A DNA stretch of 63,980 nt, counting the filler. It is 7 parts of 7 records of this genome, joined end to end, with 100 filler letters (N's around TTAATTAATTAA, not from the genome) between each part and the next. Parts side by side here need not be neighbours in the genome. Positions count along the whole stretch, not along the records: positions 26,644 to 51,387 come from SRR31156797_18086; 6 more parts are not named here. One strand, 5' to 3'. A program made the position numbers and the translations under genes. Shown piece after piece: positions 7,745 to 59,178 of this stretch. Each line of letters begins with the position of its first letter. The first letter of the stretch is position 1. The notes under the pieces were generated by a model, which did not search any database, had not been told where the DNA came from, and worked only from the letters and a program-made list of their open reading frames with translations.

Positions 7745-7844
7745 NNNNNNNNNNNNNNNNNNNNNNNNNNNNNNNNNNNNNNNNNNNNTTAATTAATTAA
7801 NNNNNNNNNNNNNNNNNNNNNNNNNNNNNNNNNNNNNNNNNNNN
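7745..7844. other. Artificial contig spacer N44-TTAATTAATTAA-N44 (also 13807-13906, 20408-20507, 26544-26643, 51388-51487, 58813-58912)
   Basis: Identical 100-bp spacer with six-frame stops occurs six times. Genes are truncated at the spacers and base composition changes across several of them. Confidence 0.98.
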
Positions 7845-13806: not shown

Positions 13807-13906
13807 NNNNNNNNNNNNNNNNNNNNNNNNNNNNNNNNNNNNNNNNNNNNTTAATTAATTAANNNNNNNNNNNNNNNNNNNNNNNNNNNNNNNNNNNNNN
13901 NNNNNN

Positions 13907-20185: not shown

Positions 20186-20638
20186 AGTAGATTTTATGTA
20201 ATGTTTTGGATGTTAAATGATTCAAATTACATAAAACCGATAACAAATCAAATAATGTAAAGTTTTTGCAAAAAAATGTTCGTATTCGTTCTACTTTAAA
20301 ATAATAACCTTTAGTCGATATTATACCTTAAAAAATCCTAAATTTGTGGTAATTAGTGGTTGCAAGAAAACTCCGTTTCTGATAAAGAAAGCTTCATTTT
20401 TGAGGCANNNNNNNNNNNNNNNNNNNNNNNNNNNNNNNNNNNNNNNNNNNNTTAATTAATTAANNNNNNNNNNNNNNNNNNNNNNNNNNNNNNNNNNNNN
20501 NNNNNNNCAAGCCAAAACCAAACAGGGTTTTACAATTTAAAAAGTTTGCAAAAGTAACTTCCGTCTCAACTTCTGCCAAAAAATGACAGATTCTTAGTTG
20601 GAAGTTACTAAGGTGTCTAATCTGTTAATTAAACCTGG

Positions 20639-26543: not shown

Positions 26544-26783
26544 NNNNNNNNNNNNNNNNNNNNNNNNNNNNNNNNNNNNNNNNNNNNTTAATTAATTAAN
26601 NNNNNNNNNNNNNNNNNNNNNNNNNNNNNNNNNNNNNNNNNNNGGTAAATGTTAAGGATGAGGGAAGTATTTGCCTGTTTTTCAGCGGTAACGTTTGCAG
26701 CGTTTCACGCAAGCCTGATAGTTATCTGGCTGCAGAGAAATCGTAAAGCGCTATGCAAAAATCATCAGATGTGTACAATAATA

Positions 26784-46974: not shown

Positions 46975-48930
46975 CTACTGAATAGCCTTACGCATTTTCA
47001 GAATATATTTTGAACGATCCAGGGGACTAATTCCCTTAAATGGCCTGATTACACCCTGTTCATCTACGCATGGTTGATAGGAATGAAGCCGTGTAGATAT
47101 TTTTGCCTTGCCACCGGAGCGAGAGCTCAATTGAATGGGATATTCCAATGATGTGGCTAACGGTAAAAGTCCGGTTAATGTAAATTTTCCATCATTCATT
47201 TCAGGACTCTCAAATGAACCTCTCATTTGGGTTATATCACCTGTAATAACTCCTAATAAATCTTCGGTGGCTGAAATTTTAAATTCCAAAACAGGCTCTA
47301 GTAAGGTTGTGCCAATATCTTTTAATCCCTCCATAATTCCCATTGGAGTAGCTATGATAAAATCACCCGGGCGAGAGTGAATTTCATGATCTTCTCCATC
47401 AATCAGGGTAATTTTAAGATCAGTAACTTCCCATCCCTTAATACCTTGCTTCAAAGCCTCAGGAATGGTTCTCTCCACCTCATTCTGATATTTACGGTGA
47501 ATTTTATCTACACTAACTTCAGATTTGTAAACGACTCCTTTTCCTGGTTCACCAGGTTCAATTCTGAATTTTACAACTGCCCAACAAGGCTTAGGCATGG
47601 TGTATTCAGCAAATCCATATCCTTCGGCAACGGGTTTCTCTTTATAAATGACAGTAGGATCTTCAAATTGAGCTTCGATGTTAAATCTGTCTTGCAAAAT
47701 GGATGTAAGCACTTCCATTTGTATCCAACCCATTACTTTCACATGTAATTCCTTATCCTCCTTGAGCCATTCAAAGCTAAGTTCGGGATTCTCAAGGGTT
47801 AAAAACTGCAATGCTTCTGCCAGCGCTATATAATCTTTATCCAAAGCAGGTTTTACCTGAACTGTAAGCAGTGGTGATTGCAATTTATTAGTGTCATTTT
47901 CATCCGAAGGAGCCTTTCCAAGCACATTGCCAACCTCAACCTCTTTAAGTCCATAAATATTGACTATATCGCCCTCATTTGCCATTTTTAGGTCTATAAT
48001 ATCTCCACCTCTGTTTTGTTTTAGCAAAGTAACTTTCTCCTCAATTTCTTTTGTGCTGTTTTTTATGAGATCGCGCGGTTGAATTTGTCCCTTTAGAATT
48101 TTGGCATATGTAATTAGTCCCTGGCCAGATTCATTAGTTACTCCGAATACCTTTGCAGAAAAAGGAGCATCATCATTGAAATTTGAATACGAAAGACCGA
48201 CAATATTTTGTAGCAATAAGTCAATACTTAATCCGGTTTTAGCACTTCCCAAAATAACAGGTGTTATTTTTGCCTTAATAATTGCTTGTTTCAGTGCCTC
48301 ATTAAGTACTTCAAAACTCGGTAATTCTCCTGATAGATATTTCTCAAGCACTTCATCATTTAGACTTGCAAGTGCTTCAATTATTTCTTCATTAAGATTC
48401 TCGCCGTGCCATAATAATTTCGAAGTTGCTTCGGCTGTTTCTTCTCCATCAATTTCGTTAAGCACAATTACATTTTCGCTAAACTGCTTTTCCAATTCAG
48501 ATATAACCAACTCACTATCAGCACCAACCCTGTCAACCTTGTTGATGAAAACAATAACAGGGATTCCTGCTTGCTGCAATACTTTCCATAAGGTTTCGGT
48601 ATGTGCCTGAATACCTTCCACTGCAGATATAACCAAAACAGCCACATCAATTACACCTAAAACTCGCTCTACTTCAGCAGAAAAATCAACATGACCTGGT
48701 GTGTCAATTAAGAAGATCTCAGTATTATCCCATTCAATGGTTGTATAAGCAGATTGCACAGAAATGCCTCTATTCTTTTCTACCGCTAATCGGTCTGTTT
48801 GGGCGGTTCCATCATCCACGCTTCCAAGGTTTTTGGTAGCTCCACTCACATACAATAGCTGCTCGGTAAGTGATGTTTTACCGGCATCAACGTGCGCTAA
48901 AATTCCTATGCTGATTTTTGGTTTATGCAT
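46975..48930 (-). CDS. TetM/TetO-like ribosomal protection protein-related translational GTPase
   Basis: AHVDAGKTSLTE, RGISV, DTPGHVDF and NKVD motifs; 651 aa from ATG 48930; RPP-like C-terminus DRSKY. Confidence 0.8.
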   Translation of the reverse strand: MHKPKISIGILAHVDAGKTSLTEQLLYVSGATKNLGSVDDGTAQTDRLAVEKNRGISVQSAYTTIEWDNTEIFLIDTPGHVDFSAEVERVLGVIDVAVLVISAVEGIQAHTETLWKVLQQAGIPVIVFINKVDRVGADSELVISELEKQFSENVIVLNEIDGEETAEATSKLLWHGENLNEEIIEALASLNDEVLEKYLSGELPSFEVLNEALKQAIIKAKITPVILGSAKTGLSIDLLLQNIVGLSYSNFNDDAPFSAKVFGVTNESGQGLITYAKILKGQIQPRDLIKNSTKEIEEKVTLLKQNRGGDIIDLKMANEGDIVNIYGLKEVEVGNVLGKAPSDENDTNKLQSPLLTVQVKPALDKDYIALAEALQFLTLENPELSFEWLKEDKELHVKVMGWIQMEVLTSILQDRFNIEAQFEDPTVIYKEKPVAEGYGFAEYTMPKPCWAVVKFRIEPGEPGKGVVYKSEVSVDKIHRKYQNEVERTIPEALKQGIKGWEVTDLKITLIDGEDHEIHSRPGDFIIATPMGIMEGLKDIGTTLLEPVLEFKISATEDLLGVITGDITQMRGSFESPEMNDGKFTLTGLLPLATSLEYPIQLSSRSGGKAKISTRLHSYQPCVDEQGVIRPFKGISPLDRSKYILKMRKAIQ

Positions 48931-49072
48931 TGTATAATAGAAAAGCTGTAAACTTAAGTATTTTGCAGCATTTATAAATATTAAAACCATTAAGTTATTA
49001 TGTTTGAAAAAGCATAAGCTAAAATTTTTATATTGGTTTACCACAATACAACAACCATAAAAATTAAAGCTT

Positions 49073-50155
49073 ATGCCACGTAAAATTAATGAAAATTCAT
49101 TTGAAGGTCAATCTATCTTTATTGGAATAGATGTGCACAAAAAGAGTTGGAAAGTGAACATACTTGGAAAACATTACGAACACAAAGCATTTAGTCAGGA
49201 TCCTGATCCTACAATTTTAGCTAGTTATGTGAAAAAGAATTTTCCTGGTGCTGAGTTTCATGCGGTATATGAAGCAGGATTTAGCGGATTTGAAGCATGT
49301 CGATCACTTAATAATTTAGGGATTAATTGTATGGTTATTCATCCAGCAGATGTGCCTACAAGTTCTAAAGAAAGACTGCAAAAGACAGATAAAATAGATA
49401 GCCGTAAACTTGCGCGAGCACTCAGAAGTGGTGAACTTGAAGCAATCCATATTCCTGCAAAAGAGTTAGAAGCGAATAGAGCTCTAGTTCGGCAACGATT
49501 TAGAATTGTAAAAGATATTAGTAGGATAAAAAACAGACTTAAATCATTACTTTTTCAATTTGATATTTCAATTCCTAATGAATTTACAGATTATCAGAGT
49601 AGATACTGGTCAAAGACCTATACAAACTGGCTTAAAGAACTAACTATCAAACATGAATCACTAAAACAAACTATTAATAATTATGTGAAAATTGGTGAAA
49701 TATTACGATCAGAACTTTTAACTATTAATAAGCAAATAAGACAATTATCTCGCTCACAACTATATGAACACAACCATAATCTGTTACTAGGAATACCTGG
49801 TATAGGTACTATTGCTGCGATGATAATTTTAACAGAATTAGGAGATATTAAAAGATTTAAACGGATAGATGAGCTTTGTAGCTATGTTGGATTAATTCCA
49901 AGAATGTACGGATCTGGAGATAAGATGCAAACAGGAAAGTTAACTAAAAGAGGAAGGAAAATTCTGAAAATAATATTAATTGAAGCCTCTTGGATTGCAA
50001 TTAGAAAAGATCCTGCATTAATGCTGAAATTCAACGAGCTTTCAGAGAAGATGAAAAAGAATAAAGCAATTATACGTATTGCAAAAAAGCTATTAAGCCG
50101 AATTAGATTCGTATTAGTCAATCAACAACCTTATGAATATAGTATAGTAGAATAA
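49073..50155 (+). CDS. IS110 family transposase/recombinase
   Basis: DEDD RuvC-like residues GIDVH, YEAG and KTDKIDS; C-terminal IPGIG...GLIP...SG with the catalytic Ser. Confidence 0.95.
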   Translation: MPRKINENSFEGQSIFIGIDVHKKSWKVNILGKHYEHKAFSQDPDPTILASYVKKNFPGAEFHAVYEAGFSGFEACRSLNNLGINCMVIHPADVPTSSKERLQKTDKIDSRKLARALRSGELEAIHIPAKELEANRALVRQRFRIVKDISRIKNRLKSLLFQFDISIPNEFTDYQSRYWSKTYTNWLKELTIKHESLKQTINNYVKIGEILRSELLTINKQIRQLSRSQLYEHNHNLLLGIPGIGTIAAMIILTELGDIKRFKRIDELCSYVGLIPRMYGSGDKMQTGKLTKRGRKILKIILIEASWIAIRKDPALMLKFNELSEKMKKNKAIIRIAKKLLSRIRFVLVNQQPYEYSIVE

Positions 50156-50182
50156 AATAAATTATTTCAAACCTTAAAAATT

Positions 50183-50335
50183 GGATGGAGGAATAAACGG
50201 TGTTTAATTTTTGCGGCACTCCAATATGAAGAAGACCGCTACATTAAGATTACGTCCTCCTTCCTCTTTAAAAAGAAAAGTACGTTGCAGCTATAATTAC
50301 AGACTGCTGATAGAAGATTGATTAAGAGGATTTTG
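50183..50335 (+). ncRNA. Candidate bridge/seek RNA of the IS110 element
   Basis: Two parallel stem-internal loop-stem modules carrying CATTAAGA (target match) and ATAGAAG (donor-junction match). Boundaries are approximate. Confidence 0.65.
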
Positions 50336-50520
50336 GAATAAATAATAAACGCTTTTTTTAAAAGCAAAAATAGGCCAATCAAAGAGTCTGTCAAGGTTAT
50401 ATAAACTTCGCTTCGCTCAGACCTTGACAAAATCTTTTATTGACCTAAAAGATGCATTGAGAAAAAAAGCTCGAAAAAAATAAAAGTTTTAGTCAACTTG
50501 CTTGGATTTCAACATAGAAG

Positions 50521-50582
50521 AAGTTAAGAGTAATTAAGAGCTCTCCTTTAACTTCTTAACTAATCGTAATGCCTTTATGGTT
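50521..50582. repeat. AACCATTAAG-family palindrome unit 1 (right part; left 10 bp at 48985-48994)
   Basis: AAGTTAAGAGTAATTAAGAGCTCTCCTTTAACTTCTTAACTAATCGTAATGCCTTTATGGTT aligns with units 2-4. Confidence 0.85.
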
Positions 50583-50607
50583 CAAGAAAAACTACTATTT
50601 AAAATAT

Positions 50608-50702
50608 AACCATTAAGCACTTCGACAAGCTCAGCATAAACAGTGAAGAATAATTAAGGGCTATGCTTTAACTTCATAACTAACCTTAATGTCTTAATGG
50701 TT
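50608..50702. repeat. AACCATTAAG-family palindrome unit 2 with nested CTTCGACAAGCTCAGC
   Basis: AACCATTAAG[CACTTCGACAAGCTCAGCATAAA]CAGTGAAGAATAATTAAG...CTTAATGTCTTAATGGTT. Confidence 0.85.
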
Positions 50703-50729
50703 AAAAAAAAAAGGTCAAATAAAAATACT

Positions 50730-50823
50730 AACCATTAAGCAGTTAAGTATAATTAAGAGCTCTACTTTAGCTTATTAACTAACCTTAATATCGGTTGCTG
50801 AGCGAAGTCGTAGCATAATGGTT
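50730..50823. repeat. AACCATTAAG-family palindrome unit 3 with nested reverse GCTGAGCGAAGTCG
   Basis: AACCATTAAGCAGTTAAGTATAATTAAGAGCTC...CTTAATATC[GGTTGCTGAGCGAAGTCGTAGC]ATAATGGTT. Confidence 0.85.
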
Positions 50824-50832
50824 CAAAAACTA

Positions 50833-51249
50833 TCATTTAGGCAGTCTTCTAAAATACTCATTTACAAAAGGCTTTATTGTTTCGGTAATGTTCATAACAT
50901 TAAAGTTAATTAAAAGGCCTTGTGGTTTTTTCAACAACTTCATGTATGTAATCAACTGTGCCTCATGTATTGGCAAGGTCTGCTCAATCGCTTTCAACTC
51001 GACGATAACAGTGTCATTTACCAGTAAATCTAAGCATAATTCTGCCTCAATATCAATTGTGTCGTAAACTACAGGAACTTTTACCTGCTGCTTCACATCG
51101 TAACCCTTCTTTACTAATTCGTGTTTTAAACACTTCTCATATATACTTTCCAATAAACCTGGACCAAGTGCTTTATGAACTTTGATAGCCATTCCAGTAA
51201 TCTCATAGGATAGATGAGTCACATCAGTTTTTGTTTTGTAATAATCCAT
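50833..51249 (-). CDS. GxxExxY protein (PD-(D/E)XK-like nuclease fold)
   Basis: VHKALGPGLLESIY, DLLV...VELK, HEAQL..Y.K and GLLINF motifs. Confidence 0.93.
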   Translation of the reverse strand: MDYYKTKTDVTHLSYEITGMAIKVHKALGPGLLESIYEKCLKHELVKKGYDVKQQVKVPVVYDTIDIEAELCLDLLVNDTVIVELKAIEQTLPIHEAQLITYMKLLKKPQGLLINFNVMNITETIKPFVNEYFRRLPK

Positions 51250-51314
51250 GGGTAATAAATAAGCTTTGAAAACTAACTTGTTTGATCTATAAAACTAGTA
51301 AAATCAAATAATTA

Positions 51315-51386
51315 AACTATTAAAAATATAAGAATAATAAAAATCATGAATGTAACTTCTTAACTAATCTTAATACCTTAATGGTT
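51315..51386. repeat. AACCATTAAG-family palindrome unit 4 (upstream of GxxExxY)
   Basis: AACTATTAAAAATATAAGAATAATAAAA...TAACTTCTTAACTAATCTTAATACCTTAATGGTT. Confidence 0.8.
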
Positions 51387-51487
51387 TNNNNNNNNNNNNN
51401 NNNNNNNNNNNNNNNNNNNNNNNNNNNNNNNTTAATTAATTAANNNNNNNNNNNNNNNNNNNNNNNNNNNNNNNNNNNNNNNNNNNN

Positions 51488-52321
51488 ACCTATATGACCC
51501 TGAACAACTCCTTCTTCGTGGCCCTGGACAACAGCCTGCGGGAGGCCTGCGAAGCCCGGGGCGACCGGCTGCTGAGCTACAATCCCGATCTGGATCAGAT
51601 CAGACAGATCCACCAGATTCAGGACATGATCTCCCTGGGCGTGGACGCCATCTTCCTGAACCCTGTGGACTGGAAGGGCATCCGCCCGGCTCTGGAGGAG
51701 GCCCGGAGGGCGGGGATCCCCGTGATCGTCGTGGACGCCCCGGTCTTCGATAGCGAATTGGTTGTCTCTACCATAGCCTCGAATAACTACGGGGCCGGGG
51801 TCCTGATCGGGCTTGATCTTCTGGGACGCCGGAAGGCCGGCTCCATCGTCATTCTGGACCATCCGACCAACAAGCCCTCCATCGACCGGCTGCAGGGCTT
51901 TCTGGATACCCTGGAGGGACATGAGGACTTCAAGGTCATCGCCACGGGCAGCGCCTTCGGTTCCCTGGACGGCGCCGTTCCGGTGATGGAGAATATCATC
52001 CAGACCCATCGCAGGATAAGCGTTATCTTCTGTACCAACGATCCCACGGCCCAGGGGGCCGTCGCCGCCCTGGAGGCGGCCAATGTGAATCAGAATATTC
52101 TGATCTACGGGATAGACGGTTCTCCCGAGGGGATGGCCCTGGTCAGGGAGGAGAAGATGATGGCCACGGTGGCCCAGTCTCCCATCAGCATCGGAGAGGA
52201 AGCCCTGGTACAAGCCCTGAACCATATAGAAGGGCGTCCCGTAGACGCCCGCGTCACCATTCCGGTAACCTTGATAAACAGCGGGAACATCCGTCAGTAC
52301 CCCTTTAACCGCTGGCGTTGA
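51488..52321 (+). CDS. Sugar ABC transporter substrate-binding protein (RbsB-like), 5'-truncated
   Basis: NNSFF, IPVIVVD, SNNYGAG, ND..A.GA, GIDG and TVAQ motifs. Confidence 0.88.
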   Translation, partial: TYMTLNNSFFVALDNSLREACEARGDRLLSYNPDLDQIRQIHQIQDMISLGVDAIFLNPVDWKGIRPALEEARRAGIPVIVVDAPVFDSELVVSTIASNNYGAGVLIGLDLLGRRKAGSIVILDHPTNKPSIDRLQGFLDTLEGHEDFKVIATGSAFGSLDGAVPVMENIIQTHRRISVIFCTNDPTAQGAVAALEAANVNQNILIYGIDGSPEGMALVREEKMMATVAQSPISIGEEALVQALNHIEGRPVDARVTIPVTLINSGNIRQYPFNRWR

Positions 52322-58812: not shown

Positions 58813-59178
58813 NNNNNNNNNNNNNNNNNNNNNNNNNNNNNNNNNNNNNNNNNNNNTTAATTAATTAANNNNNNNNNNNNNNNNNNNNNNNNNNNNNNNN
58901 NNNNNNNNNNNNTTAATGAAATGACTTGTTTTGAAGCAGTTTTAATATGTAATAGACTTTTTAATGCGCATTCCGAGTTTAAACACATTTCTGGCATTTA
59001 ATCATAATAATTCCACGAATACCCCACTCGCCTAAAACACTAACAAACATGCACTAACACGACTAAAAACAAATTTCATATTCTGCAATTTCATAGTATA
59101 AATTCGTCAATTTCTTTATCATCCAATTATATCTATATTATTATAGTTATTTTTGAGAGTTATATATCTAAATTGTCT

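Follow-up and report, generated by a model that had tools for sequence, protein, structure and literature searches.

REP/RAYT systems pair a small gene, encoding the REP-associated tyrosine transposase (RAYT), with cognate palindromes on its flanks, and these repetitive extragenic palindromic (REP) repeats, short and imperfect hairpins in which a GTAG-type tetranucleotide is conserved, also occur in arrays and as many gene-less intergenic copies, their type being tied to lineage. Transposons and their miniature inverted-repeat transposable elements (MITEs) have inverted ends made of repeated sites (Tn7-like ends, for instance, contain several transposase-binding sites), short gene-less forms that outnumber the gene-bearing form, and polymorphism at individual sites. 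Intervening sequences (IVSs) of 23S rRNA hold a small open reading frame (ORF; PF05635/TIGR02436) in the loop of a long inverted-repeat stem, and the corresponding four-helix-bundle family was first named for such ORFs. Homing endonuclease genes are small selfish nuclease genes of patchy distribution with a defined site type; those known, PD-(D/E)XK types included, occupy a conserved host gene without inverted repeats. Here we compare with these systems a gene of the GxxExxY (PDDEXK_3) family that lies among periodic palindromes on a 63,980-nt stretch of DNA, referred to in full as the window.

The GxxExxY genes and their palindromes resemble REP/RAYT in the cognate palindromes on the flanks of a small gene, the arrays, the many gene-less copies, and the tie between repeat type and lineage, but the enzyme is of the PD-(D/E)XK type rather than HUH/Y1, and the repeats, 58 to 95 nt long and built of two to four periodic units, lack the GTAG-type short hairpin. 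With a transposon and its MITEs they share inverted ends of repeated sites, an excess of short gene-less forms, and site polymorphism; the only protein, though, is ~125 to 138 amino acids long and has no known transposase fold, and no target duplication could be read in the gene-bearing copies (the sites compared are ~70% identical). To our knowledge, the PD-(D/E)XK nucleases of transposition, TnsA for one, serve there as partners of other proteins, and we know of no enzyme of this type that acts alone in it. As in the 23S rRNA IVSs, a small ORF occupies the loop of an inverted-repeat stem, but at all loci inspected the GxxExxY inserts sit between protein-coding genes, and both gene family and units differ. 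In contrast to homing endonuclease genes, the arms of the palindrome travel with the gene, and empty sites have no palindrome. Cas4/RecB-like nucleases are the closest detectable relatives, by weak matches, yet the GxxExxY protein is much smaller (138 amino acids) and has no cas context. In sum, the system works like REP/RAYT or like a transposon with its MITEs, yet fails the tests that define a RAYT. The comparison with RAYT made in the original prediction, which was drawn from the letters alone, holds as an analogy (cognate flanking repeats, extragenic copies) but not for the enzyme, which is not a Y1/HUH transposase, or for the hairpins, which are different.

A table in PMC3424549 lists the function of the family as “Unknown,” its range as “Prokaryota & Viruses,” and its history as “Multiple transfers,” and a passage of PMC8934634 names the domain only. 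Our literature search, which extended neither to subscription journals nor to supplements, returned no description of the association between gene and palindrome. Among the matches listed, those for GxxExxY, PDDEXK_3, PF13366, and TIGR04256 held nothing on function, those for the arm 10-mers and for PDDEXK with inverted repeats or mobile elements nothing relevant, and those for the four-helix-bundle/IVS protein nothing on flanking repeats. The data below suggest that small mobile gene cassettes of a kind which has apparently not been described are widespread.

The window consists of seven unrelated contigs (GC content, 0.28 to 0.55), and the locus occupies the right-hand extremity of the one at 26644-51387 (SRR31156797_18086; GC content, 0.345), which terminates at 51387, one base past the last repeat copy. 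Its features are as follows.

50833..51249, minus strand: GxxExxY/PDDEXK_3 gene, 138 amino acids (PF13366 and TIGR04256 profiles)
50523..50582, no strand: palindrome copy 1, outer left unit missing (GTTAAG, ATTAAG / CTTAAC, CGTAAT, CTTTATGGTT)
50608..50702, no strand: palindrome copy 2, complete, 95 nt, AACCATTAAG...CTTAATGGTT (base-by-base reading and repeat search)
50730..50823, no strand: palindrome copy 3, complete, 94 nt (base-by-base reading and repeat search)
51352..51386, no strand: copy 4, a single right arm, CTTAAC TAAT CTTAAT AC CTTAATGGTT (base-by-base reading)

A repeat search found one direct family with four copies, at 50522, 50642, 50741, and 51326, the last three being 83%, 64%, and 66% identical to the first. 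Their consensus reads AACCATTAAG nn RTTAAG nnnn ATTAAG, a center, and then CTTAAC TAAY CTTAAT nn CTTAATGGTT; each complete arm thus contains three (C)CATTAAG-type units spaced 8 to 10 nt apart. Four flanking palindromes with three units per arm at this spacing had been predicted, and the units and the spacing are as described, but copy 1 is incomplete and copy 4, having a right arm only, is not a palindrome. Copy 3 ends 9 nt from the stop codon of the gene, and copy 4 forms, in the direction of the gene, a 5' arm that lies 110 to 137 nt upstream of the ATG. The 16-mer CTTAACTAAYCKTAAT has 10 matches with up to three mismatches against 3.57 ± 1.89 in shuffled sequence, none of 100 shuffles reaching 10, and all four matches with at most one mismatch fall in the GxxExxY locus. 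TTAAG/CTTAA occurs at 39.8 per kb in the repeats and at 3.6 per kb in the contig. The earlier statement that no intact palindrome occurs elsewhere in the window is correct, but it carries little weight because just 24.7 kb of the window belong to this organism. In the probable source sample the palindrome recurs on four or more further contigs of like depth (174 to 188, as compared to 178.6 here), so that the family is dispersed in this genome; the depth summed over the repeats is 941 to 1044 in the contigs of that sample. No clean excision joint was found in those contigs plus a small-share run. A scan of 48900-51387 yielded no terminator-like sites, and promoter-like sites were at shuffle level (16 versus 12.4).

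Two familiar kinds of repeat were rejected on anatomy. In place of a clustered regularly interspaced short palindromic repeat (CRISPR) array there are palindromes of 58 to 95 nt separated by 25 to 27 nt of A/T-rich filler, and the filler is itself repeated in relatives (e.g., CAAATAAAAAT). An integron cassette with attC fits poorly, in that isolated cassettes have, by eye, mutually pairing half-arms on both sides, unlike a 3' attC, although no search aimed at an integrase or an attC model was made.

The assignment of the gene to GxxExxY with a PD-(D/E)XK-like motif was borne out by profile searches: the 138-amino-acid protein scores 135.3 bits against PF13366 (PDDEXK_3; cut-off, 22) and 139.1 bits against TIGR04256 (GxxExxY; cut-off, 35). 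PF13366 is its sole Pfam match, and the Y1/HUH transposase profile PF01797 does not match it. The motif reads G31-L-L-E34-S-I-Y37 and is accompanied by D74, E84, and K86, the active-site residues being intact; G29, G31, E34, Y37, D74, E84, and K86 are invariant in all 55 aligned family members (alignment A1). We take E34, D74, E84, and K86 to be the usual E-D-ExK set of PD-(D/E)XK nucleases. An AlphaFold2 model of the protein has a mean predicted local distance difference test (pLDDT) score of 95.6. Its best Foldseek neighbor is Cas4 SSO0001, a weak match (E, 3.7e-3); the neighbors reported by VIA are also weak (Z of at most 7.7), their top matches all being PD-(D/E)XK proteins, and the PADLOC Cas4 profile matches the protein weakly (E, 4e-4). 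A search of PDB sequences returned no relative at an E value of ≤0.01, and one of PHROGs returned no match.

The GxxExxY/PDDEXK_3 family comprises 16,021 representative clusters at an E value of ≤0.001. Among the 150 best representatives, 13 are tandem two-domain proteins of 266 to 295 amino acids (P0001, P0002, P0004, and P0009 among them), a form that hints at a dimeric unit, perhaps as a single-chain dimer. In genome G032, a GxxExxY domain is fused in frame to a RecQ-like helicase (L142:2450-5086, plus strand; 878 amino acids in total), where the RecQ label is a by-eye reading of the sequence and the fusion apparently runs through a translated 3' arm; a genome search gave a matching 883-amino-acid open frame in G036 and G048 (L143 and L144).

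Close relatives of the gene are surrounded by the same palindrome. The orthologues in genomes G001 (84% identical by tblastn, 83% in alignment A1) and G002 and G003 (both 72% by tblastn, 70% and 71% in A1) lie within arrays of TTAAG palindromes, and that in G004 (63% in A1) has arrays of a related palindrome on its flanks. The only two exact palindromes of G002 bracket its only GxxExxY gene, and three of the six in G001 lie within 700 nt of the orthologue. A scan for the right arm, limited to one genome per species, returned 76 stretches; all 19 loci that have the 4-nt gap of the window copy are titled Bacteroidota, and they include Pedobacter, Flavobacterium, Niabella, Saprospiraceae, Salinivirgaceae, and Lentimicrobiaceae. 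In a set of 80 metagenome loci encoding relatives of the window protein, some of them near-duplicates, CCATTAAG/CTTAATGG ends occur within 250 nt at 21 of the 23 loci with at least 61% protein identity and at none of the 57 below that value. Members of the window subfamily come in two layouts: the gene either stands between two single arms or, as in the window, has arrays of complete palindromes on either side. Other GxxExxY paralogues in these genomes have different palindromes of equal build, including ATTCGTGCATTCGTGGC arrays and CACAAGG, CGCAGAT, and CACCTTAG units. Two GATT/AATC-armed cassettes of G003 (L079 and L082) seemingly lie, as read by eye, in a type I restriction-modification cluster, the former following an apparent hsdS-like C terminus.

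Arms of this kind are a property of the family at large. Across 101 genomes drawn evenly from Bacteroidota, GxxExxY genes are present in 60, with 213 matches in total and 1 to 13 per genome. The best listed match was taken from each of 53 genomes, 51 of these having full 200-nt flanks, and was compared to 52 other genes of the sampled loci. The score of the inverted repeat between the two flanks has a median of 34 for the 51 GxxExxY genes and 17.5 for the 52 controls (Mann-Whitney p = 4e-9), and 33 of the 51 exceed the 95th percentile of the controls. The arms consist of two to four units of the form CRCNRAG (CACAGAG, CGCAAAG, CACTAAG, CACGGAT) with a period of 8 to 11 nt, and they are commonly flush with the gene, beginning 0 to 5 nt from the stop codon and ending 0 to 36 nt from the start codon. 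At least two CRCNRAG units upstream together with at least two complementary ones downstream were seen for 22 of the 51 genes versus none of 57 controls. Polarity is fixed: the purine-type arm stands upstream on the sense strand in these 22 cases, while the opposite arrangement occurs in 4. Similar-style arms also flank all four GxxExxY genes found in a genome of Planctomycetota.

Arm sequence tracks protein subfamily, as similarity between arms grows with protein identity (Mantel r = 0.36; none of 2,000 permutations was as high). Gene and arms are moreover inherited and inserted as one unit. In G068, G036, and G032, a cassette of ~425 bp (arm-gene-arm; L105) separates two host genes, and the corresponding site is empty in G151, G121, G072, G111, G100, and G130, where the host genes are 2 to 21 nt apart by BLAST coordinates and abut or overlap in the sequence. 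The empty sites of these six genomes hold no palindrome, so that the arms and the gene must have arrived together. In G084 this site is occupied by a remnant of 137 nt that includes an arm-like stretch.

Gene-less palindromes (solos) far outnumber the genes and are nearly confined to gene-carrying genomes. The 101 genomes contain 1,389 arms with three CRCNRAG units, the reversed pattern used as a control being at or near zero. Five or more such arms were found in 33 of the 60 gene-carrying genomes and in 2 of the 41 others (Fisher p = 5e-8; Spearman, 0.72), both statistics ignoring phylogenetic kinship. The sites inspected are mostly short intergenic palindromes (arm-loop-arm) or lone arms; G073, for example, has ~100 diverse solo sites and 10 genes. 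The checks proposed with the original prediction were whether repeats of this kind are commoner near GxxExxY genes than elsewhere and whether repeat family co-varies with the protein and with genome-wide repeat abundance; the flank comparison, the Mantel test and the metagenome loci, and the count of arms per genome are in agreement with it. As far as association, co-variation, and mobility go, these results support its idea of a nuclease-plus-repeat system.

The explanation that we favor, with confidence about evenly divided for and against it, is a mobile cassette bracketed by a hairpin, whose nuclease would act on the arms of its own element. The locus would then be one copy of a widespread small cassette in which a PD-(D/E)XK gene lies between inverted arms of two to four ~7-nt units, the unit being (C)CATTAAG here and CACAGAG, CGCAAAG, CACTAAG, CGCAGAT, or others elsewhere, and which is accompanied by solos, either scattered over the genome or stacked next to the gene in tandem. 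The protein may recognize the units repeated in its own arms, whether these are duplex or extruded as a hairpin or cruciform, and cut there. Such cutting could cause the cassette to be excised and inserted, in the manner of transposon ends with several binding sites, or could copy the gene into cognate solos in the fashion of a homing nuclease. The solos would be non-autonomous derivatives or targets, related to the gene as REPs are to a RAYT or MITEs to a transposon.

The periodic arms, which co-vary with the gene, offer a concrete, testable candidate substrate for the large GxxExxY family, and a class of abundant intergenic palindromes of Bacteroidota and at least one genome of Planctomycetota, which have no Rfam family, would be accounted for. 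If the nuclease does act on the arms, nuclease-plus-repeat systems would have arisen a second time, apart from REP/RAYT, and the cassette might be a minimal mobile element of a new type. Each subfamily, with its own pairing of a protein and a 7-nt unit, would be suitable material for the study, and later reuse, of sequence-specific recognition.

Several observations weigh against a nuclease that moves its own cassette. The structural neighbors found with Foldseek and VIA are generic and point to no substrate. The flanking repeat does not rise above the 95th percentile of the controls for 18 of the 51 sampled genes, and many soil relatives likewise lack the flanking repeats. The co-variation of arms and protein also follows from plain co-inheritance of linked DNA. 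One genome, G037, has 51 arm matches and ~25 solos and no GxxExxY match. Target-site duplication cannot be read for the gene-bearing cassettes, filled and empty sites being ~70% identical, and the only clear target duplication, of 4 bp, belongs to a MITE shell in G065 that has outer repeats of its own, which suggests that another transposase may spread the solos. Finally, 13 of 20 TIGR02436 four-helix-bundle genes, which have no nuclease motif, exceed the 95th percentile of the controls for arms, and the bracketing architecture therefore needs no nuclease.

The last sample was taken from five of the genomes (L149-L168; G032, G043, G065, and G101 among them), and the arms around these genes have periodic 7- to 9-nt units of other sequences, e.g., GATGTTAGAT, GTTAGCG, and AGCTGAAGGC. 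The four-helix-bundle genes look like a parallel cassette family, a parallel that suggests that residence within a hairpin is a general mode of life for small guest genes.

A stronger form of the favored explanation, that GxxExxY is the sole enzyme of minimal (~450-bp) autonomous mobile elements, we consider rather doubtful. In this form a ~125-amino-acid nuclease, together with host repair or ligation, would move the cassette or convert cognate solos. Were it correct, the 16,021 clusters and the up to ~100 palindromes per genome, in at least two phyla, would constitute a single transposon/MITE-like system, and the four-helix-bundle cassettes may be a second one in parallel.

It is unlikely, though one of the two main rival explanations, that the arms act as RNA, pairing across the guest gene to form an insulating hairpin as in IVSs, while the protein has some other target. 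The insert would be processed out (e.g., by RNase III), or the host genes would stay translationally coupled, making the selfish gene harmless, and solos would be left behind when the gene is deleted. The arm architecture shared by the four-helix-bundle genes agrees with this proposal, as do the closeness of the arms to the start and stop codons, the fixed polarity of the arms, the separation by the cassette of two host genes that overlap when the site is empty, and the 137-nt remnant with an arm in G084. The mismatches between arms do not: on the sense strand, G-U-compatible mismatches (50) are not in excess of A-C mismatches (46), transversions (152) being commoner than either, and the signature of RNA pairing is absent from this comparison. 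Mismatches between arms amount to 6.5% within units versus 21% in spacers, a contrast that is partly circular in that the units were chosen by pattern, and to 24% at the free position of the unit; neither variable positions nor spacers are kept complementary. With fewer mismatches in units than in spacers and no G-U bias, it seems to be the motif, rather than pairing, that is conserved, which from the sequences fits recognition by a protein better than a plain RNA stem. Plain pairing, furthermore, requires neither periodic units nor unit sequences that follow the subfamily, and ~100 solo sites in a genome with 10 genes are many for leftovers. No Rfam family matched 48900-51387 at an E value of ≤1 or any of 12 related loci at ≤0.1.

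Similarly improbable in our judgment, and the other main rival, is that the palindromes are independent elements, akin to REPs or MITEs, which other enzymes disperse, and that the small genes are passengers which survive at their centers. This proposal draws on G065, where a periodic hairpin of the CGCAAAG type is the core of a 130- to 160-nt MITE (L187-L208) with outer terminal repeats (GGGCRGTTCYAWAAATT), which have 91 matches in the genome; identical 4-nt flanks, a 4-bp target duplication, were seen in 12 of 14 pairs. The loop of this MITE in turn houses further MITEs and small hairpins, one of them with an 8-bp duplication. Nesting at palindromes is common, as these loops and an IS110-family element in copy 1 of the window locus illustrate, and the solos of G037 occur without a gene. 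The gene-bearing cassettes of G065, however, lack the outer repeats of the MITE, the empty orthologous sites are without any palindrome, and arm type is bound to subfamily (21 of 23 versus 0 of 57 metagenome loci), across phyla too.

As for which other enzyme that might be, genes for Y1 transposases are present in 76 of the 101 genomes, but their presence tracks the arms weakly (31 of 35 versus 45 of 66; p = 0.03). RAYT-like Y1 genes (143 to 187 amino acids; L267-L286) have short GTAG/CGTAG hairpins of the type GTCCCTACGGGAC or GATCCTCGTAGAGGATC; at 18 such loci these hairpins lie on the flanks together with only zero to one CRCNRAG unit. The repeats at the RAYT-like loci are thus REP-like in the classical sense and differ from the periodic palindromes; on the weak tracking and the different hairpins, RAYT is rejected as the mover of the latter.

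Quite improbable is a role without mobility, either as operator sites for self-regulation or in a host function such as repair of, or defense at, hairpin DNA. Units near the start codon at approximately one helical turn do resemble operators, the weak similarity to Cas4 (PADLOC and Foldseek) would suit a host function, and some copies, at the two loci read by eye, lie in type I restriction-modification operons. Self-regulation nevertheless leaves unexplained the downstream arms and the solos far from genes, as well as the filled and empty sites and the patchy distribution (60 of 101 genomes). Chance similarity of low-complexity sequence, or faulty assembly where the contig stops, might be suspected in an AT-rich contig that ends at copy 4 and in which the 10-mer with at most one mismatch is at shuffle level (9 versus a mean of 8.07), but it is refuted by the 16-mer count, which beats all 100 shuffles, and by the recurrence of the pairing of palindrome and gene in independent assemblies and metagenomes.

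The palindromes of the window locus also carry inserts. Copy 2 has a 25-nt insert in its left arm (50618-50642) and copy 3 a 24-nt insert in its right arm (50790-50813), both between units 1 and 2, and the insert variant of copy 2 is also found in G001 (L078) and in L034. The CTTCGnnnnGCTCAGC-like insert of 24 to 25 nt recurs between these two units in either arm, and at the matching position in a related genome; in copy 1, the IS110 element occupies this very position. The features of that element are as follows.

48995..50492, plus strand: IS110-family element inserted in palindrome copy 1, with approximate ends inferred from the split palindrome
49073-50155, plus strand: IS110 transposase ORF (NF033542, 212.4 bits; PF01548; PF02371)
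48985..48994, no strand: outer left unit of copy 1 (AACCATTAAG), separated from the rest of that copy by the IS110 element to its right

Outside the repeat cluster, AACCATTAAG occurs exactly in the whole window at 48985-48994 only. Because this detached stretch is the very unit that copy 1 lacks, an IS110 insertion of ~1.5 kb between units 1 and 2 appears to have split the copy, and the boundaries given above are those that the split palindrome implies. A search of G001 to G005 for further copies of the element matched the palindrome part alone, and the ends accordingly stay approximate. IS110 elements use REP repeats as targets. A strong hairpin (50371-50447), which might be a guide (bridge or seek) RNA, lies in the 337-nt non-coding stretch 3' of the transposase gene. 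The 10-mer CTTCGCTCAG occurs in the loop of this hairpin and, reverse-complemented, in the copy 3 insert (chance expectation, ~0.2).

The contigs of the window are joined by six artificial, non-biological linkers (N44-TTAATTAATTAA-N44, no strand), and the sequences on the two sides of a linker may come from different organisms. Their positions are as follows.

7745-7844: linker
13807-13906: linker
20408-20507: linker
26544-26643: linker
51388-51487: linker
58813-58912: linker

The high-GC contig that begins at 51488 bears no relation to the GxxExxY locus. On the contig of the locus, the gene at 46975-49044 (minus strand) encodes a translational GTPase of the EF-G/tetracycline ribosomal-protection type; its top NCBIfam model, tet_protect (NF012153), scores 552 bits, under the cut-off of 775, and the broader name of translational GTPase is used here since a resistance-gene label is unwarranted.

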